Virus record (IMG/VR): IMGVR_UViG_2061766007_002383
DNA length: 64,000 bases
Strand: one strand, 5' to 3'
DNA from: an uncultured virus (IMG/VR IMGVR_UViG_2061766007_002383)
Taxonomy: Duplodnaviria > Heunggongvirae > Uroviricota > Caudoviricetes
This document shows positions 29,212 to 57,356 of the stretch, in pieces. The position numbers and the translations under genes are program-made. Positions within the stretch are counted from its first letter, which is position 1, and each line of letters begins with the position of its first letter. Under the pieces are notes generated by a model that saw only the letters and a program-made list of their open reading frames with translations, did no database searches and had not been told where the DNA came from.

Positions 29212-29728
29212 AAAAGTAACCTTGTGGATGATTGCACACAGGACATTGTAAAGGTGCGTTCTTACCTACATATTGATACCCACAATTAGAGCAAATCCAA
29301 TTTATATCATCATTCTTATGAAAAACACTATTTTTTCTAATGTTTTCTAAAAGTATTTGATATCTTTTACAATGTGCTTTTTCTATTTTGGCTATCTGAT
29401 AAAATAAATCTGCTATATCTTGATAACCTTCTTTATCGGCTGTCTTATAAAAATTTACATACATTTCTGATGCTTCATAATGTTCTCCTTTTATACCATC
29501 AACTAAATTTTCTATCGTGTCTGGTATATCTTTATCGTGTAATAATTTGAACCAAATTTTTGCATGTTCTTTTTCATTATGAGCCGTCTCATCAAATATA
29601 CCTTGAATTTGATTAAGACCTTCTTTTTTTGCTTTACTAGCATAGTATTGATATTTAGTGTATGCTTGAGATTCACCAGCGAATGCTGTTTGTAAATTTT
29701 TATATGTCTGTGACTCCTTAAAGTCCAT
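29186..29728 (-). CDS. rbr: Rubrerythrin
   Basis: AFAGESQA, EKEHA, EKAH di-iron motifs, and a C-terminal rubredoxin domain WICSNCGY..CPVC. Confidence 0.95.
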   Translation of the reverse strand: MDFKESQTYKNLQTAFAGESQAYTKYQYYASKAKKEGLNQIQGIFDETAHNEKEHAKIWFKLLHDKDIPDTIENLVDGIKGEHYEASEMYVNFYKTADKEGYQDIADLFYQIAKIEKAHCKRYQILLENIRKNSVFHKNDDINWICSNCGYQYVGKNAPLQCPVCNHPQGYFYEQLFNYL

Positions 29729-29765
29729 ATCATCACCTATAATTCAAAGTAAACATCTAATATAT

Positions 29766-30074
29766 TTAAAAATTATGTCGTGGAACAAAAGGTATATCTA
29801 ACTTACGACGTTCCCCTGACATAGAAACATATTCTATATCATCTTGTATTGATACATTAAGTGGTACAAAGTCTTCTTCTAAATCAAGCTCTTGCATTTC
29901 TTTAATAAACCCAGGGTCTAATTCTAATTGATTTTCGCATTCCATAAAAAATTCATCAACAACTTCCCAAACTTTTGCTGGGTCATCTTTTACTTTATCA
30001 AGTTTATCTTGAAAGCAAAAAATTTCGTGCATACTTATTTCTACAAATTGCATTTTTCCCCATTTCTGTTTCAT
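29766..30074 (-). CDS. Hypothetical protein
   Basis: ORF coupled to the upstream gene (ATGA overlap). Confidence 0.55.
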   Translation of the reverse strand: MKQKWGKMQFVEISMHEIFCFQDKLDKVKDDPAKVWEVVDEFFMECENQLELDPGFIKEMQELDLEEDFVPLNVSIQDDIEYVSMSGERRKLDIPFVPRHNF

Positions 30075-30394
30075 TTTCTCACTTCAATCATACTACAACC
30101 CTTATCATAGGCATTTACTTTTTCATCTGTCAAGAAACAATATCCTTCATCATCTGCAAAGTTTCTGAATCGTCTACAATCTTTATGCATTCTCACTTTT
30201 AATGAAGAATCTTCTAAAGTATGGTATTTAGCGTCATGCTCTTCAAAATAAAAAACATTATCACTCAACATTCCTATTTTACAGTACTCTTCATCCAGTC
30301 CAAGATGATACAAGTAGTCTCGTGCAAAGTCTTCATCTTTGAAAATGGCTATGACATCACCATCGTAATCAAAAATATAATAACTTTTCTGCAT
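30071..30394 (-). CDS. Hypothetical protein with C-terminal Cys cluster
   Basis: Preceded by a TTTAAGTA promoter, probably leaderless. Confidence 0.55.
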   Translation of the reverse strand: MQKSYYIFDYDGDVIAIFKDEDFARDYLYHLGLDEEYCKIGMLSDNVFYFEEHDAKYHTLEDSSLKVRMHKDCRRFRNFADDEGYCFLTDEKVNAYDKGCSMIEVRK

Positions 30395-30416
30395 AATTAA
30401 TTACATATTTTCTTAC

Positions 30417-30593
30417 TTACTTAAAGATGTACCGATAACCTATGCGATAATCATCATCTTTGAACCAGTACCAAGCTCCATCCCAATTACCATGACCATC
30501 GTTATTCATAGTCTTTGATACATGTGCTCTTTTATCTTCTTGTAATATATTATAACAAGTTTTCCAATACATTTTCCAAGCTGAAGACGCCAT
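30417..30593 (-). CDS. 58-aa Trp-rich hypothetical protein (not in ORF track)
   Basis: MASSAWKMYWKTCYNILQED...GAWYWFKDDDYRIGYRYIFK*. TAATG overlap with the nrdD stop. Confidence 0.6.
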   Translation of the reverse strand: MASSAWKMYWKTCYNILQEDKRAHVSKTMNNDGHGNWDGAWYWFKDDDYRIGYRYIFK

Positions 30594-32632
30594 TATATCG
30601 CATGCCTATATCTGTCTTTGAACTCTTGTTGTTTTCCGTTGTTGAAACCTTTTGTTGGGAGATAATAACCTGTACAACGGTCATAAGTTACTAATTTATC
30701 AGAACCACAGATAGGACATACATCTATATTGTCATTGATAGTAAATTGACATTCTTGACAAAATGTAAAGACTTTTGAATATGCCCAGAAGATTACTCCA
30801 GCTCTAATAATTTTTTTATTAAAACTCCAAATGGCTTCTGCATCTGACCAAACTTCTCCACTCCATATATGAAGAATACTACCGCCCATCGTCATTGGGT
30901 TAAAGATGGCAGCATTTTTTACATGGTCAATAATGTTAGTATCGTTTGAAACAGGTATATGATTAGAGTTAGTAAGATAGTAACTTCCTTTTACCCCTTG
31001 TACTTGTGCTTGTGGATATTTTTCCTTGATTATTTCTGCAAATCTATGAGCTGTTGATTCGGCAGGAGATGCTATTACACTCCATCTTAAACCATCACGT
31101 TTATGAAACTCATCTTTTTTCTTATTTAAAAATTCAATAACATTATTACCATACTCTGGCATATTTAATGCTAATAAACATTCATATAATCCACAAAATC
31201 CAAGAGTAATAGTTGTATTCTCTATATCATATAATGGTTTGTCTGTTTCCTTATCTTTTTGCAATAAAAAATTAGACATTTGCTTATTATATATTGTATC
31301 GATTACACATTCTCTACGATATATTAATGCATCATACGCTGTTTCACATATCTTATCTAACAAACCATAAAATTCATTTTCCAAACGATAACTATAATCA
31401 TCCCTACCTAAAAAATCAACAACATTTCTTTGTGCATCTAATGCAATCAATGGTAAATTAATAGTGGTATAAGCAAAATTACCTGTATTTAAACAATCCA
31501 CTTCATACTTACCTGTCCAATTCATAGGTAACGCTGTCCTGCACCCCATTACTGTTCTTTCTATATCCATGCAGTTGACATAATACAAGGTGGGATTATT
31601 AGCTCCCTTCTGATGCAACAACTTACAATTACCTTTATATTCATCTAAATCACCTTCACGTATGTTGAATAAAATATTTGGGAAACGATGATATGCCCCC
31701 ATACCATCCTTCTCTTCTGACACTTCAAGTATCGCTCTAAATATCAAATCAGCTTCTTCTTGATAATCGGCATACACTCCATGTGCTATACCATTAGGAC
31801 CGATTGCTGGTTCATCAGCGAGTACTGGCGGTATAGATAGGTCAACACCAATTGATGTGAATAATACTTGTCCACCCCTGCATATCAAACTCATATTACA
31901 ATTGAATATAAATCCTTGTATCGCCTGCTTGATATCCTCATAAGTTCTACCGTATGCAAAAGGAGCTAATAAAGTATTAAAATTAGCATATCCCTGTCCA
32001 CCTGAAAACACAGTTGCACCAGCCATCCAAGCCTGTAACAAGTGATTTAACAATACTTCTAATGATTTGGCTGGTTTTGCTGCACTTCCCATTAACCCAA
32101 CGCCATCAACGACCAATCCGTTTCGTGCAAAGAATCTCAAGTCATAGTTCATGCAGTTTGGTCTCAATTCAAAGTATTCTAAATCATGCAAATGATAATA
32201 TCCATCAATATGGGCTTGAGAACAATGCTCTGGCATTTTCAGTAAAGAATATTCTTTTGCGATACTATCATAAGCATATTTAGCTATCATTTCAGGAGAG
32301 TAACCTATATTAGCGTTATCTCTGCAACCATTCTGTAGTAAATCTTCAAATTCAGCAACGCTCATTCCAAGCTTTCTGCTCTGCTCTACAGCTTTAAATT
32401 GTCCTTCTTTTAATAATTGTGAAGATACTTCTGCTCTCAAATCTGAAGTAGATAGCTCTGTCAACCCTTCATTTTGTTTCAACTTATATAATTTCTTGGC
32501 TATTCTATCCTGTATACGTAACGCCAATTCTTCTTCTACTCCAGTCTCATCTATAATTGTCTGCGAAATCATTCGTGGTTTAAAATTTTCTTTAGTTCCA
32601 TCACTATGTATTACAATTATTTTATCAGTCAT
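30593..32632 (-). CDS. nrdD: Anaerobic (class III) ribonucleoside-triphosphate reductase with ATP-cone
   Basis: N-terminal ATP cone, HLHDL..PNC, MGCRT, PAESTAHRFA, CxxC..CPxCG and the glycyl-radical motif RCTGYY. Confidence 0.95.
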   Translation of the reverse strand: MTDKIIVIHSDGTKENFKPRMISQTIIDETGVEEELALRIQDRIAKKLYKLKQNEGLTELSTSDLRAEVSSQLLKEGQFKAVEQSRKLGMSVAEFEDLLQNGCRDNANIGYSPEMIAKYAYDSIAKEYSLLKMPEHCSQAHIDGYYHLHDLEYFELRPNCMNYDLRFFARNGLVVDGVGLMGSAAKPAKSLEVLLNHLLQAWMAGATVFSGGQGYANFNTLLAPFAYGRTYEDIKQAIQGFIFNCNMSLICRGGQVLFTSIGVDLSIPPVLADEPAIGPNGIAHGVYADYQEEADLIFRAILEVSEEKDGMGAYHRFPNILFNIREGDLDEYKGNCKLLHQKGANNPTLYYVNCMDIERTVMGCRTALPMNWTGKYEVDCLNTGNFAYTTINLPLIALDAQRNVVDFLGRDDYSYRLENEFYGLLDKICETAYDALIYRRECVIDTIYNKQMSNFLLQKDKETDKPLYDIENTTITLGFCGLYECLLALNMPEYGNNVIEFLNKKKDEFHKRDGLRWSVIASPAESTAHRFAEIIKEKYPQAQVQGVKGSYYLTNSNHIPVSNDTNIIDHVKNAAIFNPMTMGGSILHIWSGEVWSDAEAIWSFNKKIIRAGVIFWAYSKVFTFCQECQFTINDNIDVCPICGSDKLVTYDRCTGYYLPTKGFNNGKQQEFKDRYRHAI

Positions 32633-32651
32633 AAAGTATCTCCTTAAAATA

Positions 32652-33311
32652 CTACATTTTTATAGCATTATTTTTTTTCTCTATCATATATAAATCCACT
32701 TGAAGTTCAATATATAACATATTTATTCCATATATAGTCAGCTCACTAATTTTCCTATGCTTCTTCTGTTTCAGCTGTTGAGCGCCCATACGAAACTGTT
32801 GCAAAATATAAGCACCATCATTATCAGTCGTATTAATACTCATATCCACATCAAGTTCATCCAACTGATTATACAACTTACATGATTCTACAAAACTCTT
32901 TGTCCTTATAGGGTGAACTTCATCGGTACGTTCAAACCATTCAACCAATGTCTTGTCTATTAAATGAAGCGGTGGATTATTTACGCACTTACTTACTAAA
33001 TCATTGAATAAATTACTGTCAATTTCTATGTCGGAAGGGTGGGTCAGCTTCATAAAATGATGAATAGAGCCCATTTTGTATGCAAAAAGTAATAGCTGAC
33101 CCAATTCTTCCATAATAATGGTAGTGCCATCTATATCAGTTATCATATCCAGTAATGGTTCTTCTTGGAAAGATAAAGATTGTTGAAGTGGGAGTATATA
33201 AATCCCATGAATTCTATTGTCTTCAACAAATAATGACAGCACTTTAATTCCTTTTTGTTCTTCAAAGGATTCTTTTATCATTACAAGTATATCTTCTGTA
33301 ATGTTATTCAT
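32652..33311 (-). CDS. Possible degenerate Pol-beta-superfamily nucleotidyltransferase-like protein
   Basis: GIYILP...EELGQLLLFAYK resembles YcgL-like NTases, but no GS/DxD motif is visible. Confidence 0.35.
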   Translation of the reverse strand: MNNITEDILVMIKESFEEQKGIKVLSLFVEDNRIHGIYILPLQQSLSFQEEPLLDMITDIDGTTIIMEELGQLLLFAYKMGSIHHFMKLTHPSDIEIDSNLFNDLVSKCVNNPPLHLIDKTLVEWFERTDEVHPIRTKSFVESCKLYNQLDELDVDMSINTTDNDGAYILQQFRMGAQQLKQKKHRKISELTIYGINMLYIELQVDLYMIEKKNNAIKM

Positions 33312-33804
33312 TATAATCTCCATCGTATTCTTTATCAACATTGTCTGCTGACATATCAACTAATTGTGCAAATCGTGCGCCTTTTTCTATAACAAATAAC
33401 TCATCTGTATGATTAATTAATAAAAAACTTAAGTGTCCATTGAATCCTGGGTCTCCAAAAGCTGTACGAACATCTATTCCTGCCCTTAAAAGAGAGGAGC
33501 GTGGTAAATAAAATTGTCCAGCATATTTGCTAATTTTAATCTTTTCAGTAGTTTGAGCAACGTATGCTGTATGTGGTTTAAGTTTAAATACAGTCTTTAA
33601 CATTCCACCGACTTGAATATTAGATGTTTCACATTCAATTTGTTTAGGTAATACTTTCGCATCTTTTAGTAGTCCATAAATAGTTCCTTCATCATGCCTA
33701 AAAGTATATATTGTATCTAAAGTTAAATCAATTCCTGCAGGTTGATATTGATTTTCATCAAGGTCAGGATAAATTTGTCTTAAAGTTTTTTCTCCAGTAA
33801 TCAT
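33304..33804 (-). CDS. Trimeric dUTPase / dCTP deaminase family protein
   Basis: QPAGIDLTL, PRSSLLRAG, DPGFNGHL, GARFAQL. Confidence 0.9.
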   Translation of the reverse strand: MITGEKTLRQIYPDLDENQYQPAGIDLTLDTIYTFRHDEGTIYGLLKDAKVLPKQIECETSNIQVGGMLKTVFKLKPHTAYVAQTTEKIKISKYAGQFYLPRSSLLRAGIDVRTAFGDPGFNGHLSFLLINHTDELFVIEKGARFAQLVDMSADNVDKEYDGDYNE

Positions 33805-34055
33805 TCTAAACCCTCCATTAACTGTCTTGTAGCTCTTTCTACTTGTAATTTATTTATAAATCTATTAGCGCCTTCAACAAGGTCATCAAAGTTTAAACGT
33901 AAAACTGCATAACCTAATTGACCCATTTTTAATGCAAACTCCATATCATGTCTACCATCATCAGCTTCTATAATACCAACAAGTTCAGCTGTTCTGCTAT
34001 TTATTATCAAATAAGCGTCATTTACCGCTGATATTTGTTCTTCCCATTCTGTCAT
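33801..34055 (-). CDS. Hypothetical protein (paralog of 34956-35210)
   Basis: Shares Y.V.RLNFDDL. Confidence 0.6.
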   Translation of the reverse strand: MTEWEEQISAVNDAYLIINSRTAELVGIIEADDGRHDMEFALKMGQLGYAVLRLNFDDLVEGANRFINKLQVERATRQLMEGLE

Positions 34056-34451
34056 TTAATCACATCCATCTTCTTCTATTTCTTCGTACTCTGGTTCTCC
34101 TTCATGTCCACATTCATTACATAACATACACATTTTATTGTAATCAAAATGATAATCTGCTGTTCCACATTTAGGACAAGATTCTTTCTTTGCTATACCT
34201 AATATGCCCATAATACGTCGCAAATCTTTTAATTCTAATACATCTTCACCACAATCAAAACAGTAATCTAATGGTATTAAAGAATCACCACTAAAACAAT
34301 ATTGTTCTTCAAGGTCAAACTCTTCAAATATTTGATTGCAATCATCCCATCGTGCAATACCATAATTATAATCACATTCAGGCGAAAACGCCACACAATA
34401 TTCATTCAACACATCTTCAACTGTCATCTTCATCAAATCATCTATTTTCAT
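34056..34451 (-). CDS. Protein with C-terminal TFIIB-like zinc ribbon
   Basis: CPKCGTADYHFDYNKMCMLCNECGH. Confidence 0.55.
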   Translation of the reverse strand: MKIDDLMKMTVEDVLNEYCVAFSPECDYNYGIARWDDCNQIFEEFDLEEQYCFSGDSLIPLDYCFDCGEDVLELKDLRRIMGILGIAKKESCPKCGTADYHFDYNKMCMLCNECGHEGEPEYEEIEEDGCD

Positions 34452-34969
34452 ATACCTCGCTCCTTCATTAATTTATCTAAATATTTCCACCAATCTGTTG
34501 CACCTTCAGGTTTTTGCATATATGTTGTTACATAATTAATATCGTATTCATCAAATAATATATTATACACCCCTAGTCGTTTTATACGTTTTTTTAATCT
34601 TGCACCCTTCTTATTATTTTCTGCAATCATTGTCATATAAAATACTATCCACCATAAAATAGTATCTTCATTATAATGCATGTCAATATTAGATACTAAA
34701 TTTAATATTTCTTTTTGACAGACTTCATTACCTGCTATTTCATATACGCAACAAAAATCTCCCCACACTTGTTGTGTTCCATATCGATGAGCTAATCCTT
34801 TTATCCATTCAAAATATACATCATCTGTAGGTGCATATTGCCAATGTCCCCTGCCATTAATATACACACAATAACCATCATATACACCTTCATCAAAATA
34901 AATACAAGTCTTACCGCCATCTATCATAACCACCATACTAACACAACCATAAATATTAATATATATCAA
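34448..34969 (-). CDS. Conserved hypothetical protein (DUF7004-like)
   Basis: FDEG.YD.YCVY..AP.D..YF...MIAENNK...L.KRIKRLG pattern. The true start is probably around 34930. Confidence 0.5.
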   Translation of the reverse strand: MIYINIYGCVSMVVMIDGGKTCIYFDEGVYDGYCVYINGRGHWQYAPTDDVYFEWIKGLAHRYGTQQVWGDFCCVYEIAGNEVCQKEILNLVSNIDMHYNEDTILWWIVFYMTMIAENNKKGARLKKRIKRLGVYNILFDEYDINYVTTYMQKPEGATDWWKYLDKLMKERGI

Positions 34970-35210
34970 ACTCTTTACGTCTATCTACGCCTCTGTCTTT
35001 CAAATAGTTATATCCCTCAAGAATTAAATCATCAAAGTTTAAACGAACAACTTTATATATATCAGAATCAAATTGCCTTTTCAATGCCAAGGCTTTATCA
35101 TTATCTTCTGGTATCTCTAAAATAGCTTTAGGATGTCCATTTGTACAAATAACTAAAAAAACTTCTTCAGGTAACCTATAAAACTGCTGTTGAAAAGTTA
35201 AACCCATCAT
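34956..35210 (-). CDS. Hypothetical protein (paralog of 33801-34055)
   Basis: YKVVRLNFDDLILEG. Confidence 0.6.
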   Translation of the reverse strand: MMGLTFQQQFYRLPEEVFLVICTNGHPKAILEIPEDNDKALALKRQFDSDIYKVVRLNFDDLILEGYNYLKDRGVDRRKEFDIY

Positions 35211-35885
35211 CTATCACCTTGCTCATATGTTATACGTTCATAATCTTCCAAATCTTTTATCATTTTAAACTGTGAATACACTTCATTAGTAAATTTAATC
35301 GTTGTCTTTTTCAATGCCATTAAATGTAAGCGTTTCTTTCCATATTTAGGATGTTTAAACTGATAATACTTGAACTTCTTATCATAAAATCGCTTGTAAC
35401 TGTCATCATTATTAATAATTTTTTGTGTACATCGAGTAAGTGCTACTTTTAAGTTTTCACAATAATCAATATTATCATACTTTTTATTAGCAACACGCTT
35501 ACCTTTACTATGCTTTCTAATTTTATAGACTTTATTGTTACGTTTTTCAACAGGAGCTAAACCTGCATAAGAAATAAATTTTCTTCTATTATGAAAACGT
35601 CCAATATCACCGACTTCCACAATAATTTCAGCACAGTCGTATAANNNNNNNNNNNNNNNNNNNNNNNTACTCCCTTGTAAAAAGCAAACGAGTATATATC
35701 TCATGTCTAATCTTTTGTAAAGGCAAGTCTAACGGTGTGATACTGATATCATTCATATGCTGTTGAGCAGACTCATTCAATTCAATAATATTATCTAGTC
35801 GATATTTATTACTGGTCTGTGCTTCGTACAAAGTTTTATTAGTTGAGAATAATATCGTAAGTACTTTTCTTTCATATTCGTCCAT
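35207..35885 (-). CDS. IS110/Nop-domain protein lacking RuvC (TasA-like); single gene split by the N gap at 35645-35667
   Basis: AEIIVEVGDIGRF..RRKFISYAGLAP...Y..NLK...Y..FYD...HP...K..H.MA.KK. Helical N-terminus, no DEDD domain, no SG motif after GLAP. Confidence 0.75.
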
Positions 35886-36517
35886 TATCGCATTCTCCTA
35901 ATAGATTGTTTAGATTTTTCCTGCAAACGAGGAACACTATCTAATTCTTCGTCGGACGCATTAAACACACCACCAGGAGTCTTAAAATTATCAAGTAAGA
36001 CACGAGCCATCTTTTTACCTACTTTAGGTATACCAATTAAAACATTTATCATTTCGTTGCTATCTTTTTTTCTAACGATTGGGGGTTCAATAGGCTCATC
36101 ATTTTTATTAACATTAGATATAATAGCCTTAATACATTTAAGAAAATGATTAGTGTTATCACATTGGATAACTGGTACTTTATATCGTTGCATTAATGAT
36201 ACGATGTTGCCATATTTTTCATTCAATGTTAGTTGATTAACATATCGCTCATTCATCTTGCCATCATCATAAATGAGAATAAATGAGAATGGATATATTT
36301 TTTTCATATTCAAGGCTTCTTTTTGTATCTGTCTATCTCTACAGGATTTAGTAAAGTCTTGAATTGTTTTTGTTTCAATGCAGATGATAGGACTATCTCG
36401 TTGATAAATTAATATATCTCCAGCCAACAAACGTTTTACTTCAATCTTGCTATTAAATTCTTTTTTAATAGCAGCAACACGTTCTTTATCTTCTCTATCG
36501 TCTATATATATTTCCAT
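35885..36517 (-). CDS. ERCC4/XPF (Hef-like) structure-specific endonuclease with HhH
   Basis: IYIDDRE, GD, IETKTIQDF..S, and HhH motif IPKVGKKMA. Start taken at MEIYID. Confidence 0.9.
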   Translation of the reverse strand: MEIYIDDREDKERVAAIKKEFNSKIEVKRLLAGDILIYQRDSPIICIETKTIQDFTKSCRDRQIQKEALNMKKIYPFSFILIYDDGKMNERYVNQLTLNEKYGNIVSLMQRYKVPVIQCDNTNHFLKCIKAIISNVNKNDEPIEPPIVRKKDSNEMINVLIGIPKVGKKMARVLLDNFKTPGGVFNASDEELDSVPRLQEKSKQSIRRMR

Positions 36518-36524
36518 ATTATCC

Positions 36525-37481
36525 CTATAGATATAAATAACACCCATTACATTTATTGGGCGAACAAAAACCATTATCTTGTAATGTTCGACAAGATGCG
36601 AACAACAAGTCTTCCCTTGTATAATATAGATAATATGGTTGTTCTTCTTCGTGCACACAATGATGATATTTATGTTCAGATAAAATAGTTTTTAATATCA
36701 ATAGTATTTCTTCAAAACTATAACCATCATCCCTTAAATATAATATTAACTGTCCACGACCCCAATAACCTAATTCTGGACTTCTTAACATTTCTTCAAT
36801 ACAAGGCGGATACCCTTCTTGTACATGAATGTTATTTATATCAATGTTAGTTCTTAAATCTTTTGGTACATCTTCTTCAGTATCAAAACTAGATATATCT
36901 AAATATTTTTCACCAACAAAAACTTGGTCTACAATAGATGAGTCATCAATATCCTTTGCCATCTCACATATACTGTCATATGTAAAGTTCATCAATTCAT
37001 TATACTGAATAGGAATACAATACAGATGTGTTTTAAGGTTAATGGAATTAAGCATACGACTGACTCTTCTTAAGTCACCGACAACTGCAGAATCACTTTT
37101 AGTATTAGTTTTGGTATGCATATCTTTTACCCATTGTTTAATGGCTTTTTTAGGATTATATAATTTTTTACCAGAATCTAGATATATGAATATATGAAAT
37201 CCCCTGCCTGAAAACCTAATACAAAATGTGTATTGAGAGTCTGCTAAATACTTCGCAACTTTGCGAACATCATCAAAAAATATCAAATCTTTATCGTAAT
37301 CAAAGTCTAAAAAAATTTTGTCAACAATTGCATTATAAGCATTAATATCCCCATTATAATCATATACTGACCTATAAATGTTTTTTTTACCAGAATATAA
37401 CATGCGATACTCTTCTACATCTTCTTCTGTATTAACTGCAATTCTTTTTTTGGGAATAAAAATTTCTATCATATCAATCAA
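36525..37481 (-). CDS. Archaeo-eukaryotic primase: PriS catalytic domain fused to a PriL C-terminal-like domain
   Basis: FLDFD, FSGRGFH and D..RV.RM.NS.N.KT, followed by YPPCIEEML...GR..L..YL and C-terminal Cys cluster. Confidence 0.85.
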   Translation of the reverse strand: MIDMIEIFIPKKRIAVNTEEDVEEYRMLYSGKKNIYRSVYDYNGDINAYNAIVDKIFLDFDYDKDLIFFDDVRKVAKYLADSQYTFCIRFSGRGFHIFIYLDSGKKLYNPKKAIKQWVKDMHTKTNTKSDSAVVGDLRRVSRMLNSINLKTHLYCIPIQYNELMNFTYDSICEMAKDIDDSSIVDQVFVGEKYLDISSFDTEEDVPKDLRTNIDINNIHVQEGYPPCIEEMLRSPELGYWGRGQLILYLRDDGYSFEEILLILKTILSEHKYHHCVHEEEQPYYLYYTREDLLFASCRTLQDNGFCSPNKCNGCYLYL

Positions 37482-37866
37482 CTTCTAAAAATTCCATCTC
37501 TCTATCAAGTTCTTTTTTTAATATCATTTCTGCTAACTTAACAGCAAATTGACAATGTGGGTCTAACATCAGCCCTGTTTCGCCGTTAATTTCATACCAT
37601 GGAAATTCTGCACATGCATCAAAACGTGTTGCATATTCATTACATGTCCTTCCATTAAAATATTGACAATCTAATGTACGACAACATGCCCCACACTTTT
37701 TACAAAACTCTGGATAATCCTGTACTTGTTCATAAGTAAAATAAACGCCTGGTGTTACATTAAGTACAGTATCTATAATATCTACAAAAATATCTAATGG
37801 CAACGCTGTATAATAAGGTTCATATTTTTGTATCATTTTGAGAGAAAACTGAATATGATTAATCAT
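37474..37866 (-). CDS. YkgJ-family CxxCxxCC Zn/Fe-S cluster protein
   Basis: CKKCGACCR..C..CNEYATRFDACAEFPW. Confidence 0.8.
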   Translation of the reverse strand: MINHIQFSLKMIQKYEPYYTALPLDIFVDIIDTVLNVTPGVYFTYEQVQDYPEFCKKCGACCRTLDCQYFNGRTCNEYATRFDACAEFPWYEINGETGLMLDPHCQFAVKLAEMILKKELDREMEFLEVD

Positions 37867-38594
37867 TAAAATCCCCCATCAGCTTCACACATACTTTTAT
37901 ATCCACAATACTTACATATATATTGTTTATTTGGATAAAAACGTTGTGCTTTTACTTCTTCCCTAATAAAATCAAGTAACTCTAATGAAGCATTATAATC
38001 TTCTTCTGTACAAAAAGCACCTTTCTCTTGTACTTCAACAAAATTAATAAATCTAAACTTACCATCCTTGGTAAAAAATATACCTGCACTAATCACTTCC
38101 ACATTAGGGTATTTGTTCTCAATCATCATACGATAATACATTAATTCAAGTCTATATTTTTTAATAGAACCAGAACGTCCAGTCTTATAATCAATAATGA
38201 TTATATCATTATTTTCATCACGAACCACAAGGTCACAAAGTCCAGAAAAATCATGTTCTAGGTCATGTAAGTATTCTTCACAAGAAAACACTTCATATTT
38301 CATATCTGGATTATGAAAAACTTCTTCAAAAAATTCTGCCAAATGGTCAAGATGTGTCTTCAAATCAAACTTTGACCCTACTTCTATGGCAAGTTCGTCC
38401 AACTTGCTCCTATAATCTTCTGAACTTATACCACCTTCTTTGACAAATTTTTCAGCTATTTCATGCACGTCAAGCCCCAATTGCATATATTCGTTAGGTG
38501 CTTGTTGTATTTTATCTATATATTGATACTTAAATGCTCTACGACATTTAAGAAATTCATTGACTGATGATTTACTCAATTTCATATTTATCAT
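37866..38594 (-). CDS. PD-(D/E)XK RecB/Cas4-like exonuclease
   Basis: LSKSSVNEFLKC, G..VH, G.CDL, IIDYKTG, C-terminal CKYCGYKSMC. Confidence 0.9.
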   Translation of the reverse strand: MINMKLSKSSVNEFLKCRRAFKYQYIDKIQQAPNEYMQLGLDVHEIAEKFVKEGGISSEDYRSKLDELAIEVGSKFDLKTHLDHLAEFFEEVFHNPDMKYEVFSCEEYLHDLEHDFSGLCDLVVRDENNDIIIIDYKTGRSGSIKKYRLELMYYRMMIENKYPNVEVISAGIFFTKDGKFRFINFVEVQEKGAFCTEEDYNASLELLDFIREEVKAQRFYPNKQYICKYCGYKSMCEADGGF

Positions 38595-39069
38595 CCTCCT
38601 CTTCTGCTATTCTATGTAATACATAAATACTATACCATTCCATAAAATATCCAACTCTGACATAATATCCATGATAATACCAACGAAATGGTTTACTTCT
38701 ATTTTGATTTTTATGTGAGACATAATGCACTTTATCACTATCCCAAAAAGTATATTCAGATTTACCACCTTTACCATGTTTTTGATGAACATAATCCCCA
38801 CCTTTCGTACAATTATATTGTGGATTATATTCTTCAATATACTCTTTCTCTAGATTATTCAACTCATGTTCTTCACAAAATTCTTCAATATATAACACAT
38901 AACGTTTATTATCTTCCAATATTTTTAAATCAATTGGTTGATTAGCTTTTTTATCTCTTGAATGAGCACGATGTCTACGATAAATATCACGACTTTGTCC
39001 TATATATACAATTTTATATTTATTTTTTAAGTCCCTATATGAATAAATACCACATAATTTTTCAATCAC
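38572..39069 (-). CDS. GIY-YIG endonuclease
   Basis: GIYSY...YIGQS.DI.RR...E..YI..YNPQYN..KGG. Confidence 0.9.
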   Translation of the reverse strand: MIEKLCGIYSYRDLKNKYKIVYIGQSRDIYRRHRAHSRDKKANQPIDLKILEDNKRYVLYIEEFCEEHELNNLEKEYIEEYNPQYNCTKGGDYVHQKHGKGGKSEYTFWDSDKVHYVSHKNQNRSKPFRWYYHGYYVRVGYFMEWYSIYVLHRIAEEEDDKYEIE

Positions 39070-39098: not shown

Positions 39099-39812
39099 TT
39101 ATATTTGAGTTTCACATACGCTATTACAGAAAGCGCTGTTATCTGATGGGATATAAGATATAAACATTCCTGCTACAATATTTTTTGGCAAATTACTACA
39201 AGTAATATATGTTTTTGTATCACCTTTTTCATACACTTCCAATCGCAAACAATTATTTCCTTTTCTACTCTTGAAATATTTTGCTTGTTTAACTAATGCA
39301 ACTGGTACATACATACTATCATAATCAAGGTCATCTATCATACTTAAAGACACTCCATCAAGATAATTTCTTTCTCGAAGAAATGAATTATCTGTATTGT
39401 AATCTATTAAAAAATGCATATATATTTTGCCATTAAACGTATGTCCTTTGATAATAACAAGATGCCCCTTTTGTAAGTAATCCCCATACACATTCAAAAC
39501 ATTAGAATCAATAGATACACTCAAGTTCCACCCTTTATTTTGCAGATGTATGATACAATAGTTCTTCTTCATATCTATATCTACAATCACTCCTTTAACT
39601 AAAACTTCATTAATATCCATTTCTAACTCTTCCATTGGAGTTAATACATCATCATACTCTGTTTTAAAAACATCCACATATTCTTCTCGTGGGGAGAATG
39701 ACAAAGCTGAATACTCTTTATTAAGAATATCTAATTTCGTATACTTTTTCGATTGACCAAAAAAATAATTAAGCAATTGCGAACGTTTTTCCACAACTTC
39801 TTTCATATTCAT
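39099..39812 (-). CDS. OB-fold protein corresponding to the DnaE C-terminal region
   Basis: LNKEYSALSFS resembles the DnaE 'E.E.LGFY' segment, followed by OB-like VKGVIVD...GHLVIIKG and a second OB-like KSRKGNNCLRLEV. Confidence 0.6.
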   Translation of the reverse strand: MNMKEVVEKRSQLLNYFFGQSKKYTKLDILNKEYSALSFSPREEYVDVFKTEYDDVLTPMEELEMDINEVLVKGVIVDIDMKKNYCIIHLQNKGWNLSVSIDSNVLNVYGDYLQKGHLVIIKGHTFNGKIYMHFLIDYNTDNSFLRERNYLDGVSLSMIDDLDYDSMYVPVALVKQAKYFKSRKGNNCLRLEVYEKGDTKTYITCSNLPKNIVAGMFISYIPSDNSAFCNSVCETQI

Positions 39813-40009
39813 TTAATCACCTGTCGAAAACTTATTGTTATTTCATTCATATTATTATCAATATTTATTTCACGTAAATTAAATGCATCAAAATTATTTA
39901 TTAAAAAATCAAAATCGCTATGTAAAAATTCCCCTTTTAGTACTAATTCAACATACGTCGATTTTTGAAACAAATCATATATATGATTATACAATTCTTG
40001 ATTTAACAT
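39809..40009 (-). CDS. Small hypothetical protein inside the split polymerase locus
   Basis: Overlaps both neighbours (TAATG / ATGA). Confidence 0.6.
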   Translation of the reverse strand: MLNQELYNHIYDLFQKSTYVELVLKGEFLHSDFDFLINNFDAFNLREINIDNNMNEITISFRQVIK

Positions 40010-41808
40010 TATATCAACCTACTTTGATATTCCTTTTCTTCATGCACAATTGGTAAATTATCAAAAGCACCTGCATTAATAAGATTTTCTTTTACTCTCT
40101 TGTTACATTGTCTTGCACTTACCCTTGCACAAAAGTCATCAAAAGATTTAAAATCTCCATTCTTATTTCTTTCATTAATTATGTAATTACTTACTTTATC
40201 ACTTACTTTATCAATGAGATTAAAACCAATAAGTATCTCATTACCATTAATTGTTGTGTTCGCTTGACTACGATTAATGTCAGGACTTAAAAGTTCTGCA
40301 TTTGAGTCTTTAATCATATATAAAATGTCAATAATTTTCTCATCTTCTTTAGTGTTTTGAAGCATAGCAACTGCAAATTCTAACGGATAGTATGTTTTTA
40401 ACCATGCACTTTGATATGCTAAAACAGAGTATCCTACAGCATGTGAGCGATTAAAGGAGTAATCTGATGACTTTTCCATATCATTCCATAATTTTTCAGC
40501 GACTTCATCATCTACATTATTTTCTTTACAACCTTTTAAAAATTTAGGTTTAAACTCTGTAAACGCTTCCTTTTTCTTTTTAGATATCGCTCTACGTAAT
40601 TGGTCGGTTTCGAGGTCACTCATTCCCGCAAGGTCACGAGCAACAGCCATAGCATCTTCTTGAAATATCATAAGCCCTTGTGTGTCCTTAAGTGTTTCTT
40701 TAAGTCGTTCGTCAAGATATACTGGCTCTTTACGACCAAATTTGTAGTCACAATAAAGTTTATCCATACCAGAGTTCCTTGCTCCTGGTCTAATTAATGA
40801 TATAATTGCTGTTAATTCGCTAAAGTTTTCTGGTTGCACCATAGCAACTCCAGCTCTACCTGCACCTTTTTCTAACTGGAATAATCCTAGTGGATTCTTA
40901 CAAATAGTTTTATAAACTTTTGAGTCATCAAAAGTATAAGGTAATGTTACATCATCCTTAATCAATTCAAGACAATCTCTTTGAATATCCAACACAGCAA
41001 TACCTAATGTATCATTTTTTAAAAAACCCATCGCTTCACATTCAAGCCCATTATTAGATATAATTTCTTTACCAGTTATAGAAACTGTTGACACATATTT
41101 ATCCATAACATCATCAAAAACAATTAAAGCACCTGCATGTACACCCAATGACTTAACAATACCAATTAATGGGTCAATATAATCTCTAACTTCAGGATAT
41201 TGATTTAAAAAATCCATAACTTTTTCATTCTCTTTATAATCTTCATCAGAATCTAATTGCTTGGTTACTAAATTAACTTGCTGAAAATCAATACCTTGCC
41301 TTGATGATAAATCTTTTATCAACATCTTGGCGGAGAATGGTGTCTTTGTCATCACTTGACCACATTTATCTTCACCGAATGTCTTTTTAATAAGTTTTAA
41401 TACGTCATCACGACAATCAGAACTCACATCAGTATCTATATCTGGAAGTTGGGTCATTGCTCTTGTCTTATTAAGAAAACGTGCAAAAGAAAGATTATAT
41501 GGTTTTGGTGGTATCTTTGTAATGTTTAATCCATAACATACCACACTAGCAAGGCAACTTCCCCTTGCAGGACCACGAAATATATCCGCATCATCAATAA
41601 GAGCACATATATATGCTGTCTGTAAAAAGAAATCTTCTAACCCACATTCACCAATAATATCTAATTCTTCTTGAAGTCTGTCTTGATACCATTGGTCATC
41701 ATAAACTCCTTTCTTTTTGAGACCTTTAATAGCCATTTGTTTCATGAATTGAAAGTTCTCATCTTCATTGGCTTGGAAAGTAGATTGATACGTTGATAAT
41801 ATACTCAT
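40009..41808 (-). CDS. dnaE: Family C DNA polymerase (DnaE alpha) catalytic core: palm, thumb, fingers, HhH
   Basis: GPARGS, PDIDTD, GVHAGA, KNDTLG, FQLE, RPG, FQE, YSFNRSHA, LKTYYP, PDINRS, AGAFD. Confidence 0.95.
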   Translation of the reverse strand: MSILSTYQSTFQANEDENFQFMKQMAIKGLKKKGVYDDQWYQDRLQEELDIIGECGLEDFFLQTAYICALIDDADIFRGPARGSCLASVVCYGLNITKIPPKPYNLSFARFLNKTRAMTQLPDIDTDVSSDCRDDVLKLIKKTFGEDKCGQVMTKTPFSAKMLIKDLSSRQGIDFQQVNLVTKQLDSDEDYKENEKVMDFLNQYPEVRDYIDPLIGIVKSLGVHAGALIVFDDVMDKYVSTVSITGKEIISNNGLECEAMGFLKNDTLGIAVLDIQRDCLELIKDDVTLPYTFDDSKVYKTICKNPLGLFQLEKGAGRAGVAMVQPENFSELTAIISLIRPGARNSGMDKLYCDYKFGRKEPVYLDERLKETLKDTQGLMIFQEDAMAVARDLAGMSDLETDQLRRAISKKKKEAFTEFKPKFLKGCKENNVDDEVAEKLWNDMEKSSDYSFNRSHAVGYSVLAYQSAWLKTYYPLEFAVAMLQNTKEDEKIIDILYMIKDSNAELLSPDINRSQANTTINGNEILIGFNLIDKVSDKVSNYIINERNKNGDFKSFDDFCARVSARQCNKRVKENLINAGAFDNLPIVHEEKEYQSRLI

Positions 41809-42749
41809 TATACCACCTTCTTTAAGAATATTTCTTTAAAATGTTTGTGCTGCGTAAACTTCGGTATGACCCTATCGTATGATTTTGGTTCAAAATAACA
41901 CCTTTGTGCAATCTCATATGTATTATTAATACATAATTGTATCAATTCATCATCATCTATGCCAGATTCATGGGCAAGGTCAAAGGAAAGCTGACTTGAG
42001 CCAAGAACATTACTTTTTAATGTATCATTAATTTCATCTTCTGGCTTCTTCCAATTAATACTCTGTATCTTTTTTCGCAAAGGTCTACCTTTATCAGTCA
42101 ATACATGGCTATCGAATGTATTGATTATCCATTTAGCATTCATATCATAATACATTTCAATAAGTTTTCTGTTTAAATAATTTTGTGGATGTAATCCCTT
42201 ATCATCTTTCCACGTTGGATGATACTGCAACTCTACCGCTACATTATCTCTACCAAAACCGTCCAATAACTTACCAAAAAAATCATATGCTTCTTCATCG
42301 TCGCAATTAAGAAAACAATTATTTATATATGAAAGCGCACAAGCAGTTGAGCAAAAAAGCCCTTCCGTATTTTCAAAAATAAGTTCGTGTGGAGTCAATG
42401 GCTTATAATAAAAGTGGTCAGCCACAGACAATCTTTGAAGTTTTCTTAAATTAATAAGACCTGTTTCATTCATGGCAATTAAAACAAGATGGTATCGATT
42501 TTGGTCAGTAGGTTTTGCCATTGTTGTCTTACAATATAATTCGTTACCAAATAAGGGTTTGATGTTTGTATCTTTACATGCTTGTTGAAAACTGTAATGA
42601 TTCATTAATGAACCATGGTCTGTTATAGCACAATATTCCTGTTCATATTCCTGTAGTTTCTGAACAAGGCTTGGTACTGTAATGATAGAATCCCCTATTG
42701 AAGCATCTGTATGTAAATGTAAATTACAGAAAGAATCCATCAAATTCAC
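41808..42749 (-). CDS. Stand-alone PHP domain of DnaE (putative proofreading subunit)
   Basis: HLHTDAS..D, TDHG, G.E.Y, HLVLIA.N..G..NL, FYYKP, ELQ, DSH. Confidence 0.9.
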   Translation of the reverse strand: MNLMDSFCNLHLHTDASIGDSIITVPSLVQKLQEYEQEYCAITDHGSLMNHYSFQQACKDTNIKPLFGNELYCKTTMAKPTDQNRYHLVLIAMNETGLINLRKLQRLSVADHFYYKPLTPHELIFENTEGLFCSTACALSYINNCFLNCDDEEAYDFFGKLLDGFGRDNVAVELQYHPTWKDDKGLHPQNYLNRKLIEMYYDMNAKWIINTFDSHVLTDKGRPLRKKIQSINWKKPEDEINDTLKSNVLGSSQLSFDLAHESGIDDDELIQLCINNTYEIAQRCYFEPKSYDRVIPKFTQHKHFKEIFLKKVV

Positions 42750-42984: not shown

Positions 42985-43872
42985 TTACACCTCTTCAGTT
43001 GATGGGAATATTAAATCTTTTACTGCTTCATAATTAGTTTCTGCTATACCTTCTTCGCTATTAACAGACATAAAAACAACTGGTATATTAACAGAAAAAA
43101 TATCAGAACGATTCTTTTTAACTTCAGCAATATAATTTTCAACATGATTATTATCAGAGCTTCGTTTCTTACTTAATACAACTCTAACACCACATTCATC
43201 AATTAACCTTTCTTTAACCGCAGGGAATGATTGACCTGGCTCTACCAATTCAGGTAAGAAATCTTGATGTGTTACGAATATAACAGGAATATCTAAAGCC
43301 ATATAAGCTGATGTAAATGCTCTAAAGTATTTTGCACGTATTTTCCATACGTGAGTTGGTGTACCACCATCAGGTGCAATATTTTTTTCCATTCTCATTT
43401 TAGATTCTGCAAATTCTAATAAAAATGACACACCATCTACAATAACACCTTTTACTTTGATGCCATTTGATAATGCCATTTTAATAGCTGCAGCAGTAGA
43501 AGTTACATTCTCTAATACTCTTTCTTCATCTTTAACTGATGCTCCACGGTCATTAATAGTGGTTGCATCAGGGTTAAAAGAAATAATTTGTCCACTATGA
43601 AGTTCTTTTTTGAAAAATTTATTGATAATTTCGTTACCTGAATTATCAATACCAATATAAATAACAACTTCATCTTTTTTTAAGTCGGAAGTAAACATTG
43701 TTAATGCTAATGATGTTTTTCCTAAACCATTTTCACCAGACAACACTATTTTTTGTGCAACTTTATCATGCTCAACTTGTTTTTTAGCTTCAAAAATTTT
43801 TTGATAGATTTCATCGGCTAAAGAAACTTGTGCATCTCTTGTTTGTTCTGCTTTCTTATCTAATAATGCCAT
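42985..43872 (-). CDS. P-loop ATPase (AAA_24/Sak4-like recombination protein)
   Basis: Walker A GENGLGKT, Walker B VIVDG, FVTH, KKNR. Confidence 0.75.
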   Translation of the reverse strand: MALLDKKAEQTRDAQVSLADEIYQKIFEAKKQVEHDKVAQKIVLSGENGLGKTSLALTMFTSDLKKDEVVIYIGIDNSGNEIINKFFKKELHSGQIISFNPDATTINDRGASVKDEERVLENVTSTAAAIKMALSNGIKVKGVIVDGVSFLLEFAESKMRMEKNIAPDGGTPTHVWKIRAKYFRAFTSAYMALDIPVIFVTHQDFLPELVEPGQSFPAVKERLIDECGVRVVLSKKRSSDNNHVENYIAEVKKNRSDIFSVNIPVVFMSVNSEEGIAETNYEAVKDLIFPSTEEV

Positions 43873-44056: not shown

Positions 44057-44252
44057 CTGATTTATTAATTTCTTGTTTGATTACTGCTTTACTGAAAGGA
44101 TGTTGTGCTATAACCAAATCATTTTGTAAATGTTGAATACGTACACGTAATTGACGTGTACGTATATCAAACATTTTTGCTGGGTTTTGAAAATCGTTAC
44201 TATTAAAACCCATAAAAAGCCACCTACTCATCAGCGAGAGGTAAGAAACCAC
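44016..44252 (-). CDS. Small helical hypothetical protein
   Basis: ORF in operon; likely start MGFNS after AGGTGG. Confidence 0.5.
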   Translation of the reverse strand: MVSYLSLMSRWLFMGFNSNDFQNPAKMFDIRTRQLRVRIQHLQNDLVIAQHPFSKAVIKQEINKSVDEYVARKIQEGN

Positions 44253-45207
44253 CTAATCTATAACCTACCACATCATCTTTATTGACATAAGTATTAATAA
44301 AAGCAAGACCAGTAATGCCTTCTTCAATGGTCAAATCCTTGAAGATATTCTTGGTTGCCCAAGCGGTAAACACTTCATCGTCAACTTCTAACTCAACTGG
44401 TACTGTACCATCATCAGACGGATTACCAAGTCTATTGACAATACAGAAAATTGCCGCATAATTAAAAGTATCTGTTGCATTTTGTCTTGCAAAATCATCT
44501 ATGTCAGATTTTAATGAGAAGAATATATCTCCACATCCACTCTCAATCATATCTGCATATGATTGGAAATCTTCTTCTGAATAGTAACGACTTGCTGTTG
44601 TACTTCTTGCTCCATTAAGATAATATTGATTCTTTTTAGGGAATACTTTCCCTGCATTGCCTGCGTCTTTAACACTTACAGAAATCTCTCTACAGATTGG
44701 AATGCTATCCCATACATTGAATTTACCGATGGTAAGGAATCTGATATCTGTTCCTTCATCTCCTTGGAAGATTCCTAGTGCATATCCACGAGCATCTTTT
44801 TTATCAATTACTTTACCCATTTGATTACTAAATTGGGTAGTAAATGATGTATGGACGTATTCGCCTTCTTCATTTATCATCCCTGACTCTTTGGCTTTTT
44901 CTTCACCATTTTCTTTGACATATTTGTCTACTCTATTCCATGCATTGACATTATAATCATTGTCACGGAATCTCATGAAAATAAAGGAATCCACATAGTT
45001 TGCATTACTGTTTGCAATTCTTCTTAATGCTCCCCTTGTTTTTCTTAAGGCTCTTAATTCTTTAGCCTTATCAGACAAATCGTCTGGCAGTTCACTGTAT
45101 ATTTTATCATATACTTCGTTAATTTCTTCGTCAGAGATATTGTTATCTTTTGCGAATTTTAAAGTTTTTTGCCTTTCTTTTTCGGCACTATTTATCTCAA
45201 ATTTCAT
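44224..45207 (-). CDS. Hypothetical protein, possibly SSB/OB-fold
   Basis: First gene of the replication operon, GGAGG RBS, beta-rich C-terminal half. Function inferred from context only. Confidence 0.4.
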   Translation of the reverse strand: MKFEINSAEKERQKTLKFAKDNNISDEEINEVYDKIYSELPDDLSDKAKELRALRKTRGALRRIANSNANYVDSFIFMRFRDNDYNVNAWNRVDKYVKENGEEKAKESGMINEEGEYVHTSFTTQFSNQMGKVIDKKDARGYALGIFQGDEGTDIRFLTIGKFNVWDSIPICREISVSVKDAGNAGKVFPKKNQYYLNGARSTTASRYYSEEDFQSYADMIESGCGDIFFSLKSDIDDFARQNATDTFNYAAIFCIVNRLGNPSDDGTVPVELEVDDEVFTAWATKNIFKDLTIEEGITGLAFINTYVNKDDVVGYRLGGFLPLADE

Positions 45208-46588: not shown

Positions 46589-46690
46589 GAACACCCCATT
46601 GATGGGGCGTCCAAATGAAGAGAAAATCAATGAAGTATGCTCTTCTGTCAAATTATTAAATACACAAGCAAATATGGGGCGAACCCCAAA

Positions 46691-46765
46691 AGCCAAAGGA
46701 GAGACTCGAACTCCCACACTTCCGATTACAAGTCGGACGCTCTAACCAATTAGAGCTACTTTGGC
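46691..46765 (-). tRNA. tRNA-Thr(UGU), no encoded CCA
   Basis: GCCAAAG/CTTTGGC acceptor, GCTC..GAGC D arm, TCCGA-CTTGTAA-TCGGA anticodon arm, GGGAG-TTCGAGT-CTCTC T arm, U discriminator. Confidence 0.95.
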
Positions 46766-46775
46766 TAGAAGAAGT

Positions 46776-48951: not shown

Positions 48952-49266
48952 TTACAATTGATAGACAGCACCTTTACAATCAAGATTAGTTCGTTTAAAA
49001 AACGATAATGTCGTACAATGATGCCTTGGGATACCAAAACGCTTATCTAAATAAATATAATATGTTAAATGTTTCCATGCTACATAATAATATTTAAAAG
49101 TATCCAATTGTTGATAGTATATTCTTTTACGCCTTTGACTTTNNNNNNNNNNNNNNNNNCTTTTAATTTGTAAACGTTTTTCATTCATACTTTCATATTC
49201 ACTATCCTTTGGTGGATATGAAAGAGTATAATACTCTTTTATGAAATTAGAAATCAATTTATTCAA
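48952..49266 (-). CDS. Basic hypothetical protein (contains N gap)
   Basis: TTG start after GAGAA. Confidence 0.4.
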   Translation of the reverse strand: MNKLISNFIKEYYTLSYPPKDSEYESMNEKRLQIKXXXXXXXSQRRKRIYYQQLDTFKYYYVAWKHLTYYIYLDKRFGIPRHHCTTLSFFKRTNLDCKGAVYQL

Positions 49267-57305: not shown

Positions 57306-57330
57306 TTTTATCACCCCCTTAATTATTTGT

Positions 57331-57356
57331 TTATGTAATTGATTACTTAAATACTT
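57331..57356 (-). promoter_or_regulatory. Conserved viral promoter/operator, copy 2
   Basis: AAGTATTTAAGTAATCAATTACATAA, 24/26 identical to 4998-5023, upstream of the HNH gene. Confidence 0.6.

Follow-up and report, generated by a model that had tools for sequence, protein, structure and literature searches.

How does the virus of a methanogen come to replicate with a polymerase of bacterial type, and why should this enzyme be spread over several genes? Both questions are raised by a locus at positions 39099-42749 of a 64,000-nucleotide stretch of DNA from the uncultured Caudoviricetes virus IMGVR_UViG_2061766007_002383 (the whole stretch is called the window here), where a PHP domain, a DnaE-type catalytic core and an OB-fold protein are encoded by separate genes (Table 1). 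We consider it likely that the window belongs to a tailed virus (about 140-150 kb) of Methanobacteriales from gut or rumen whose replicative DnaE is carried on three polypeptides, having been split by the invasion of selfish genes, and that this state is tolerated. The PHP, core and OB proteins would be translated via overlapping stop and start codons and, most likely, reassemble non-covalently. The break between PHP and core would be the older one, as sister lineages and the cultured PhiF1 have it too, and the younger break between core and OB would lie at a site repeatedly used by mobile or accessory DNA, with an open reading frame (ORF) of 66 amino acids (aa) as one passenger at this hot spot. 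Fragmentation would in that case be a by-product of selfish-gene invasion, tolerated presumably because the breaks fall between domains.

All four minus-strand ORFs of the initial annotation were confirmed. The bounds it gave for the PHP gene hold for the longest ORF, which begins at 42749, whereas the actual start is likely the ATG at 42740 (MDSF..., 310 aa), since relatives begin with MDKF or MDKY; a Shine-Dalgarno-like GGGGGTG run lies upstream. The genes follow the domain order of DnaE, as had been proposed and was borne out by Pfam, PHROG and alignment, and the suggested translational coupling is reflected in the junctions PHP/core, core/66-aa and 66-aa/OB, which are TAATG, TAATG and ATGA overlaps between different frames, with an AGGTG-like Shine-Dalgarno run upstream of each start in the locus. 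No run of N falls inside 39099-42749 (the nearest are at 35645-35667 and 49143-49159), and no polymerase piece matched an intein/Hint family in Pfam, in agreement with the earlier description of junctions free of gaps and inteins.

The PHP protein matched Pfam PHP at 1.4e-31 and could be aligned with the PHP domain of Thermus aquaticus DnaE (2hpi; 1.8e-12), and on the 1190 positions of phrog_405 ("DNA polymerase") the PHP protein and the core follow each other, covering 41-342 and 331-927, respectively (core E 1.2e-170). Nine canonical PHP metal ligands (H11, H13, D20, H45, E70, H87, C127, D213 and H215) are kept in 7/7 viral orthologs; the inactive PHP domain of Escherichia coli misses five of the nine. 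This complete set suggests that the PHP subunit is likely a proofreading 3'-5' exonuclease. The core matched DNA_pol3_alpha (PF07733, 5.8e-46), DNA_pol3_finger (PF17657, 3.2e-37) and HHH_6 (1e-24), aligns with residues 320-891 of E. coli DnaE (5e-78) and ends just past the AGAFD motif in both translation and alignment, as first described. Its catalytic aspartates are kept in the aligned motifs PDIDTD and KNDTLG, whose E. coli counterparts we take to be D401, D403 and D555. Assignment to family C therefore stands, but not the name PolC used earlier, as solved DnaE structures were matched at 1.5e-78 and PolC at 2e-5. With a PHP domain, a palm with three aspartates, fingers, HhH followed by OB and a better match to DnaE than to PolC, the locus shows the traits of the DnaE family except for the internal beta-clamp motif and for one continuous polypeptide; being encoded by three genes in different frames with overlapping stop and start codons, it is therefore a split variant of this family.

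By its sequence alone, the 237-aa protein appears to reach DnaE C-termini only via fused relatives. No match to it was found by tblastn against phages, the profile of its OB family retrieved only chance-level GpsB matches among PDB sequences (E 0.14), and PF01336 (OB fold), for which weak matches were obtained in 21 of the 24 sequences of the family (best E 1.3e-5), stays under the cut-off for the window's own copy (E 0.11). In the 830-aa relative P0107 (the protein of locus L003; core 72-73% identical), the core is continuous with a homolog of the 237-aa protein, which aligns to residues 584-830 with 46% identity (E 4e-69), and residues 962-1156 of PhiF1 ORF57 match it as well (E 9e-6). Aligned by MAFFT with full-length DnaEs, the protein falls right behind AGAFD, on the conserved linker that precedes the OB fold. 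The AlphaFold (AF2) model (24 sequences; pLDDT 88, pTM 0.75) comprises three helices, an OB unit of beta1-3/alpha/beta4-5 (residues 70-137), followed by a second domain of beta type (171-235). Among 48,161 representative PDB chains, in a search that mostly probed residues 52-142 of the model, the OB region of Mycobacterium tuberculosis DnaE1 came out at the top (7pu7_A 988-1099; Z 11.7, root-mean-square deviation 2.5, 96 residues), although the rule applied by the tool counts this as a tie with the OB domains of tRNA synthetases (Z 10.7-10.9). The best three matches in BFVD are polymerase-sized proteins with 203-236 columns aligned: the first, shown without a name, has 1176 aa, which is the length of PhiF1 ORF57 (TMq 0.69, 236 columns, E 5.5e-15), and the second and third come from Streptomyces and Rhodococcus phages and bear the name DNA polymerase. 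Tandem-OB matches and BFVD matches over 235-236 columns provisionally suggest that the second beta domain of the model is OB-like, too. On the basis of fused homologs, structure and alignment, we identify the 237-aa protein as the C-terminal, OB-bearing part of DnaE, detached from the core, which supports the OB assignment of the initial annotation.

Once freed, such a double-OB protein could also have become an independent factor for processivity or for single-stranded DNA, comparable to a single-stranded DNA-binding protein (SSB), without being a stable polymerase subunit. Consistent with this, the best PDB matches of the model in Foldseek are two-OB SSBs (2cwa, 2.7e-07), several BFVD matches are SSBs, no other SSB or clamp was recognized near the locus, and the ratio of nonsynonymous to synonymous substitution rates (dN/dS) of the OB piece is above that of the core. 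However, the OB gene overlaps or adjoins the core gene in every split relative, L003, L101 and PhiF1 have core and module on a single gene, the N-terminal helices match the DnaE linker behind AGAFD, and among viral structures it is the C-termini of polymerases that match best (TMq 0.69), so that we regard an independent factor as improbable and a polymerase module as the preferred assignment.

The archaeal host is indicated by the lysis gene. The endolysin of the window matched Peptidase_C71 with 52.2 bits (cut-off 22) and PMBR with 38.7 bits (cut-off 24.9), and tblastn against 50,697 phage records gave 12 matches, all 12 to viruses of Methanobacteriales (MSTV1, vir249, vir323, PhiF1, Drs3, psiM100 and psiM2, some of them as duplicated entries). 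Peptidase_C71 and/or PMBR were found together with the polymerase in three independent assemblies as well, i.e., in the viral genomes G001 and G004, which carry PMBR genes, and on contig C64 of G002, which bears the split polymerase and both families (Peptidase_C71 56.8 bits, PMBR 32 bits). Judged from these genes, a pseudomurein-walled methanogen (Methanobacteriales) is by far the most likely host, which agrees with the archaeal virus proposed initially, and the archaeal-type primase and SF3 helicase genes of that proposal were recovered as well (a PriL-like gene and a PF00910/DUF5906 primase-helicase gene; Table 1).

A bacteriophage of low-GC Firmicutes, in which a DnaE would be expected without any crossing between domains of life, has to be weighed against this host. 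The relative P0099 is labelled "MAG: Bacilli bacterium" (MAG, metagenome-assembled genome), and the 147-kb contig of the relative L085 is part of a MAG titled "Clostridia bacterium", which has its own 1161-aa DnaE and 1497-aa PolC but no McrA and is therefore a real Firmicute bin. Yet the label of a MAG describes the bin and not each contig, and we read both labels as binning artefacts, because this 147-kb contig of the "Clostridia" MAG (C64) carries the C71 and PMBR gene beside its split polymerase. As the endolysin of the window matches only viruses of Methanobacteriales, the gene order agrees with that of the Methanothermobacter virus PhiF1, and PriL-like and ERCC4+HhH genes are present in the window, a Firmicute phage is very unlikely.

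It could further be argued that the polymerase of this methanogen virus is decaying, its pieces being pseudogene fragments in a virus that uses the PolB/PolD of its host, and three breaks in one gene, the surrounding mobile elements and the lack of a clamp motif would fit such a fate. The lengths of the pieces argue otherwise, being conserved across hundreds of sequences, down to 63-68% identity: 112 of the best 120 core homologs have 587-607 aa (the remaining eight are five of 438-582 aa, an intein form of 1000 aa, a fused form of 830 aa and one of 576 aa), and 118 of the best 120 homologs of the OB piece have 231-245 aa. All active-site and metal-ligand residues are retained, each start keeps its ribosome-binding run and the overlap with the preceding stop, and in comparison with five relatives the proportion of nonsynonymous differences (pN) lies far below that of synonymous ones (pS) for all three pieces. 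The dN/dS values (PHP, 0.13-0.40; core, 0.09-0.17; OB piece, 0.20-0.46; 13 of 15 comparisons with dS estimable, the other two saturated outright) are rough, because dS is near saturation. Decay of the polymerase is thus highly improbable.

The history of the locus was approached by a tree of the core (68 rows, 606 columns, LG+G4, ultrafast bootstrap/SH-aLRT, rooted at the midpoint only). Eleven of the 125 collected sequences were left out for a core coverage below 80% or because they were not matched; of the more distant representatives every fourth was kept, in addition to the PHP-less ones, and the duplicate P0248 was dropped. The clade of the window comprises nine rows (100/100), with the fused L003 outside the eight split-core rows (94/85). 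Together with L101, P0244-P0247 and P0249 it forms a group of 15 rows (100/100), sister to a 7-row group (100/97) that contains PhiF1, and these 22 rows (99/99) leave outside the cellular DnaEs as well as nine of the ten phages included by name. A quicker first tree divided cellular DnaEs (E. coli, the Firmicute MAG and Bacteroidota) from virus-type ones, each half being supported at 99; Streptomyces phage Izzy groups with the cellular sequences. The comparison with phage and bacterial DnaEs called for in the initial annotation hence places the window polymerase within a virus-borne DnaE radiation and shows it not to be recently captured from a bacterial chromosome. In IMG/VR, the outgroup member P0244 found no relative and P0246 only distant phage DnaEs of ~30% identity.

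The break between PHP and core is common to the clade of the window, L101 and PhiF1. The two were on separate genes in 7/7 genomes examined (the window, L001-L004, L085 and L101), and in L101 (136 kb), whose core shows 38% identity, the PHP gene (312 aa) abuts a gene of 804 aa for core and OB. In the nearest outgroups (L101, P0244, P0245 and P0247) the polymerase gene is PHP-less with core and OB fused, and seven of the ten nearest outgroup clusters scanned are PHP-less, three PHP-fused. The core/OB break was found only in the clade of the window, where L003 alone lacks it; the split first described in the window recurs in its relatives. From this distribution, the PHP/core break appears to be old and the core/OB break younger, derived within the window's clade.

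A different pattern was observed in unrelated phage contigs (L007, L010, L012, L021 and L042; up to 238 kb), where the longest ORF over the DnaE match has ~620 aa. Such ORFs of many IMG/VR phage loci cover only PHP and the first ~275 residues of the core and stop inside the latter, which suggests another DnaE break point, after the palm.

What lies at the core/OB junction differs even among close relatives. There is no break in L003/P0107, the junction is empty in L002 and L085, and it is filled by the 66-aa ORF in the window and in contigs of run X5 (another study), by an unrelated 61-aa ORF in L001, by a 93-aa ORF and a 487-aa C5 cytosine methylase in L004, and by 1495 and 395 other letters in runs X3 and X4, respectively (contigs of two other studies). 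The variable part extends from the TAATG of the core to the OB gene's ribosome-binding region. Selfish genes occur around it. In L085, a GIY-YIG+NUMOD3 ORF occupies precisely the PHP/core junction. Further GIY-YIG genes come after OB in L002, L003 and L085, where paralogs of the gene that the window carries directly downstream of its polymerase genes flank or interrupt the locus; L003 has another one upstream of PHP, and inteins (Intein_splicing + LAGLIDADG_3) sit in the palm between GPARG and S in the relative P0082 and the outgroup P0246. An endonuclease gene at the break in some relatives, with presence and absence differing among close ones, is a trait of fragmentation by homing endonucleases, and junction variability, GIY-YIG genes and inteins together lead us to read the fragmentation as a by-product of selfish genes.

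The 66-aa ORF was listed in the initial annotation as an insert gene among the polymerase parts. It has 21% GC, shows no relationship to the GIY-YIG genes or to the ORFs of 61 and 93 aa, has no counterpart in the fused homolog P0107, and its family numbers three clusters, one of them being that of the window, whereas the OB piece has at least 160. Because few relatives have it and others carry different DNA in its place, we take it for sporadic cargo at an insertion hot spot rather than for a subunit. Its translational coupling on both sides, an identity of 82-88% in the two other clusters and its recurrence in another study (X5) could be explained by a fourth, adaptor subunit bridging core and OB module, but a protein that is missing from the empty junctions of L002 and L085 and from fused forms, and whose place is taken by unrelated ORFs or DNA in L001, L004, X3 and X4, is extremely unlikely to fill this role.

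Errors of sequencing or assembly as the source of the stops, or a chimeric contig joining phage and archaeal virus, have next to no probability. Although the window was assembled from a metagenome and contains masked N runs, ORFs of the same lengths are met again in many independent assemblies of varied origin, contigs of three other studies align on the locus, and an endolysin or PMBR gene shares one contig with the polymerase in the window, G001, G002:C64 and G004, four assemblies that rule out a chimera. A goat-gut contig spans the PHP/core junction with 70 substitutions and 0 gaps (the letters of the stop codon are not individually visible), and the sequencing runs with sequence of the locus are mostly from bovine and goat gut by their records, one being labelled soil. 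The stop codons are accordingly genuine, as claimed at first, and both ways in which the initial annotation saw its reading fail, errors and chimerism, have lost their ground.

Besides the bacterial labels and the roughness of the dN/dS values, two further points weigh against a three-chain DnaE split by selfish genes. The PHP-fused P0249, P0251 and P0277 nest in the mostly split 22-row clade, so that splits or re-fusions occurred more than once, and the polarity of the splits is not certain under a midpoint root. Moreover, no endonuclease gene was found in the core/OB junction itself, one being located in the PHP/core junction of L085 and the others downstream of OB, and the case for a homing-endonuclease origin of the core/OB break is circumstantial.

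A three-chain DnaE also poses the question of how a bacterial-type polymerase devoid of a clamp motif could achieve processive synthesis beside an archaeal-type primase, in a host whose clamp is PCNA. In E. coli, the internal beta-clamp motif is given as 920-QADMF-924 (PMC3201878). The segment of this motif is missing from the whole clade of the window, whereas the cellular-type P0253 and P0254 keep it as GQGDLF and GQMDLF. No PIP or beta-like motif was detected by regular expressions in any polymerase piece, and the 96%-complete relative G001 gave no match to DnaN (PF00712) or PCNA (PF00705), divergent clamps being possible. The start of the 237-aa protein (KRSQLLNYFF) was considered as a clamp motif and discarded; it aligns to E. 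coli GPHRAALMNSLGD, not to QADMF, and follows no PIP- or beta-like pattern. One could imagine that the modular three-subunit replicase of this lineage works in the archaeal cell without a beta clamp, with the double-OB subunit handling single-stranded DNA and processivity in trans and the tail of the core docking that subunit or a factor of the host, for instance PCNA. We hold this for doubtful; if true, the fragmentation of DnaE would be more than merely tolerated.

Several protein termini and neighbors deserve mention in this context. The last residues of split cores form a short conserved tail, Q-[S/A]-[R/K]-L-[I/V/C] (window 40009-40026), which among 112 sequences reads e.g., KQSRLI in 13, VQSRLI in 11 and VQARLC in 9; it is missing from the fused form L003 and could be a docking peptide. 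The core of L004 ends in QTTLGFFK, one residue short of a PIP box. The PHP protein of L101 (7063-8001) has a PIP-like tail, KQKKLSDF, and PHP proteins of the window's clade end in FLKKVV, without such a tail. Upstream of the PHP gene, a 327-aa protein without family match and a Sak4-like ATPase are encoded in every relative including L101; they could possibly form a recombination or accessory replication pair and are the only conserved unknown big enough for a divergent clamp.

Table 1. Coordinates of the polymerase genes and of other features in the window.
Feature	Position	Strand	Length	Basis or remark
Pseudomurein endoisopeptidase-type endolysin	5059-5940	plus		Same contig as polymerase
Very large ORF	13632-20975	plus	2447 aa	Structural module; no Pfam/PHROG match
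Very large ORF	21510-26426	plus	1638 aa	Structural module; no Pfam/PHROG match
Nucleotide-metabolism/stress gene set	29186-34969 and 53286-54026	minus		
Transposase_20 (IS110-family) ORF	35207-35704	minus		Cut by N run
Replication/repair module downstream of polymerase	35885-38594	minus		Pfam; order as PhiF1 ORF56-ORF54
ERCC4 (XPF) + HhH nuclease	35885-36658	minus		Pfam
PriL-like protein	36525-37481	minus		PF04104, 30 bits
ORF within the replication/repair module		minus	130 aa	
PD-(D/E)XK/Cas4-like nuclease	37866-38594	minus		Pfam
GIY-YIG homing-endonuclease-like gene, free-standing	38572-39069	minus		Pfam GIY-YIG 3.3e-08; phrog_7168 homing endonuclease
Detached DnaE C-terminal module	39099-39812	minus	237 aa	Linker helices, OB fold, second beta domain
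ORF at core/OB junction, function unassigned	39809-40009	minus	66 aa	No Pfam or PHROG match
DnaE core ORF	40009-41808	minus	599 aa	Palm, thumb, fingers, HhH
PHP ORF	41808-42749	minus	313 aa from GTG	Predicted 3'-5' exonuclease subunit
Sak4-like ATPase	42985-43872	minus		
Protein without family match	44224-45207	minus	327 aa	
tRNA-Thr (TGT)	46690-46766	minus		Sole tRNA in the window
HNH endonuclease gene	56907-57374	minus		Directly downstream of primase-helicase
Primase-helicase	57355-59550	minus		DUF5906 + SF3-type RNA_helicase domain (PF00910); PHROG "DNA primase"; N-terminus abuts a 251-base N run and may be truncated in the window

Apart from the replication genes, the window contains two very large ORFs that are probably tail-fibre or adhesin-like host-recognition proteins; weak Big/Ig-like matches were obtained in the ORFs adjoining them. 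The Transposase_20 gene stands in the same place as PhiF1 ORF53, which is annotated as "transposase 20 superfamily-like", and as it is kept in the same order across distant viruses, it may have another role. The nucleotide-metabolism and stress set includes rubrerythrin, NrdD with an ATP-cone, dCTP deaminase/dUTPase-like, DUF7004 and thymidylate-synthase-like genes; PhiF1 is likewise annotated with NrdD, dCTP deaminase and a "methanogen-type thymidylate synthase".

As to novelty, the GenBank annotation of PhiF1 has already made public that an archaeal virus can carry a family C polymerase; new are the third break, located between HhH and OB, the finding that it is derived, and the hot spot for insertions. 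C-family polymerases are stated to be confined to bacteriophages in two surveys of viral replication (PMC3201878; PMC4889955), and a 2024 survey has archaeal viruses encode family B polymerases (PMC11348598). Our literature search found no paper joining archaeal-virus Caudoviricetes, a methanogen and DnaE, and the papers naming PhiF1, as far as searchable, do not discuss its polymerase. The clade of abundant methanogen viruses from gut and rumen, to which PhiF1 belongs, contradicts these statements, and so far as searched this is recorded only in that annotation. Moreover, the locus and its relatives provide a natural series of one replicase with one, two or three chains, which shows the points at which a DnaE may be divided and yet be maintained by selection, with mobile genes as the probable agents of the cutting.

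Among known systems, PhiF1 (GenBank MK994522.1; cultured; host Methanothermobacter thermautotrophicus) is to be compared first, its ORF58 being annotated as UDG (uracil-DNA glycosylase) plus PHP and its ORF57 as "DNA polymerase III DnaE superfamily". This two-gene DnaE of a methanogen virus renders outdated the premise of the initial annotation that DnaE is bacterial or bacteriophage. Both viruses have a separate PHP gene directly upstream of the polymerase gene, followed by genes for a PD-(D/E)XK nuclease, a hypothetical protein, an ERCC4 nuclease, a transposase-20-like protein and NrdD, and the core of the window is 33% identical to ORF57 (2e-82) and falls into the same 22-row clade (99/99). 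They differ in that PhiF1 has two genes with the OB C-terminus fused, whereas OB is separate in the window; furthermore, the PHP gene of PhiF1 bears the UDG domain at its N-terminus, ORF57 has a palm insertion of ~350 aa in the region of the P0082 and P0246 inteins (without an intein family match), and the PhiF1 genome measures 74 kb against about 140-150 kb for the virus of the window.

DnaE on two adjacent genes without inteins is also found in Cellulophaga phage phi13:1 (gp038+gp039) and Mycobacterium phage MrMiyagi (gp83+gp84), and PHROGs includes PHP-only and core-only families. These phages have bacterial hosts, however, and neither the three-gene form nor a detached OB occurs in those records; in phi13:1 the break lies inside the palm (525-aa first piece) and not at the PHP/palm border. 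With cellular DnaEs such as those of T. aquaticus (2hpi) and M. tuberculosis (DnaE1; 7pu7/5lew), the window shares domain order, PHP ligands, catalytic aspartates and OB fold, but those enzymes are single polypeptides from a separate half of the tree, and the internal clamp motif that E. coli and cellular-type relatives carry (QADMF, GQGDLF) is lacking in the window's clade. Cyanobacterial DnaE is encoded by two genes whose halves are joined by a split intein; in the window, the pieces match no intein family and the genes abut. Finally, T4-like phages have genes fragmented by free-standing homing endonuclease genes, and the locus resembles them in a replication gene cut between domains, in endonuclease genes at or beside the breaks and in their variable presence, whereas the cargo of the core/OB junction is non-endonuclease in the cases seen and homing is here a putative process.

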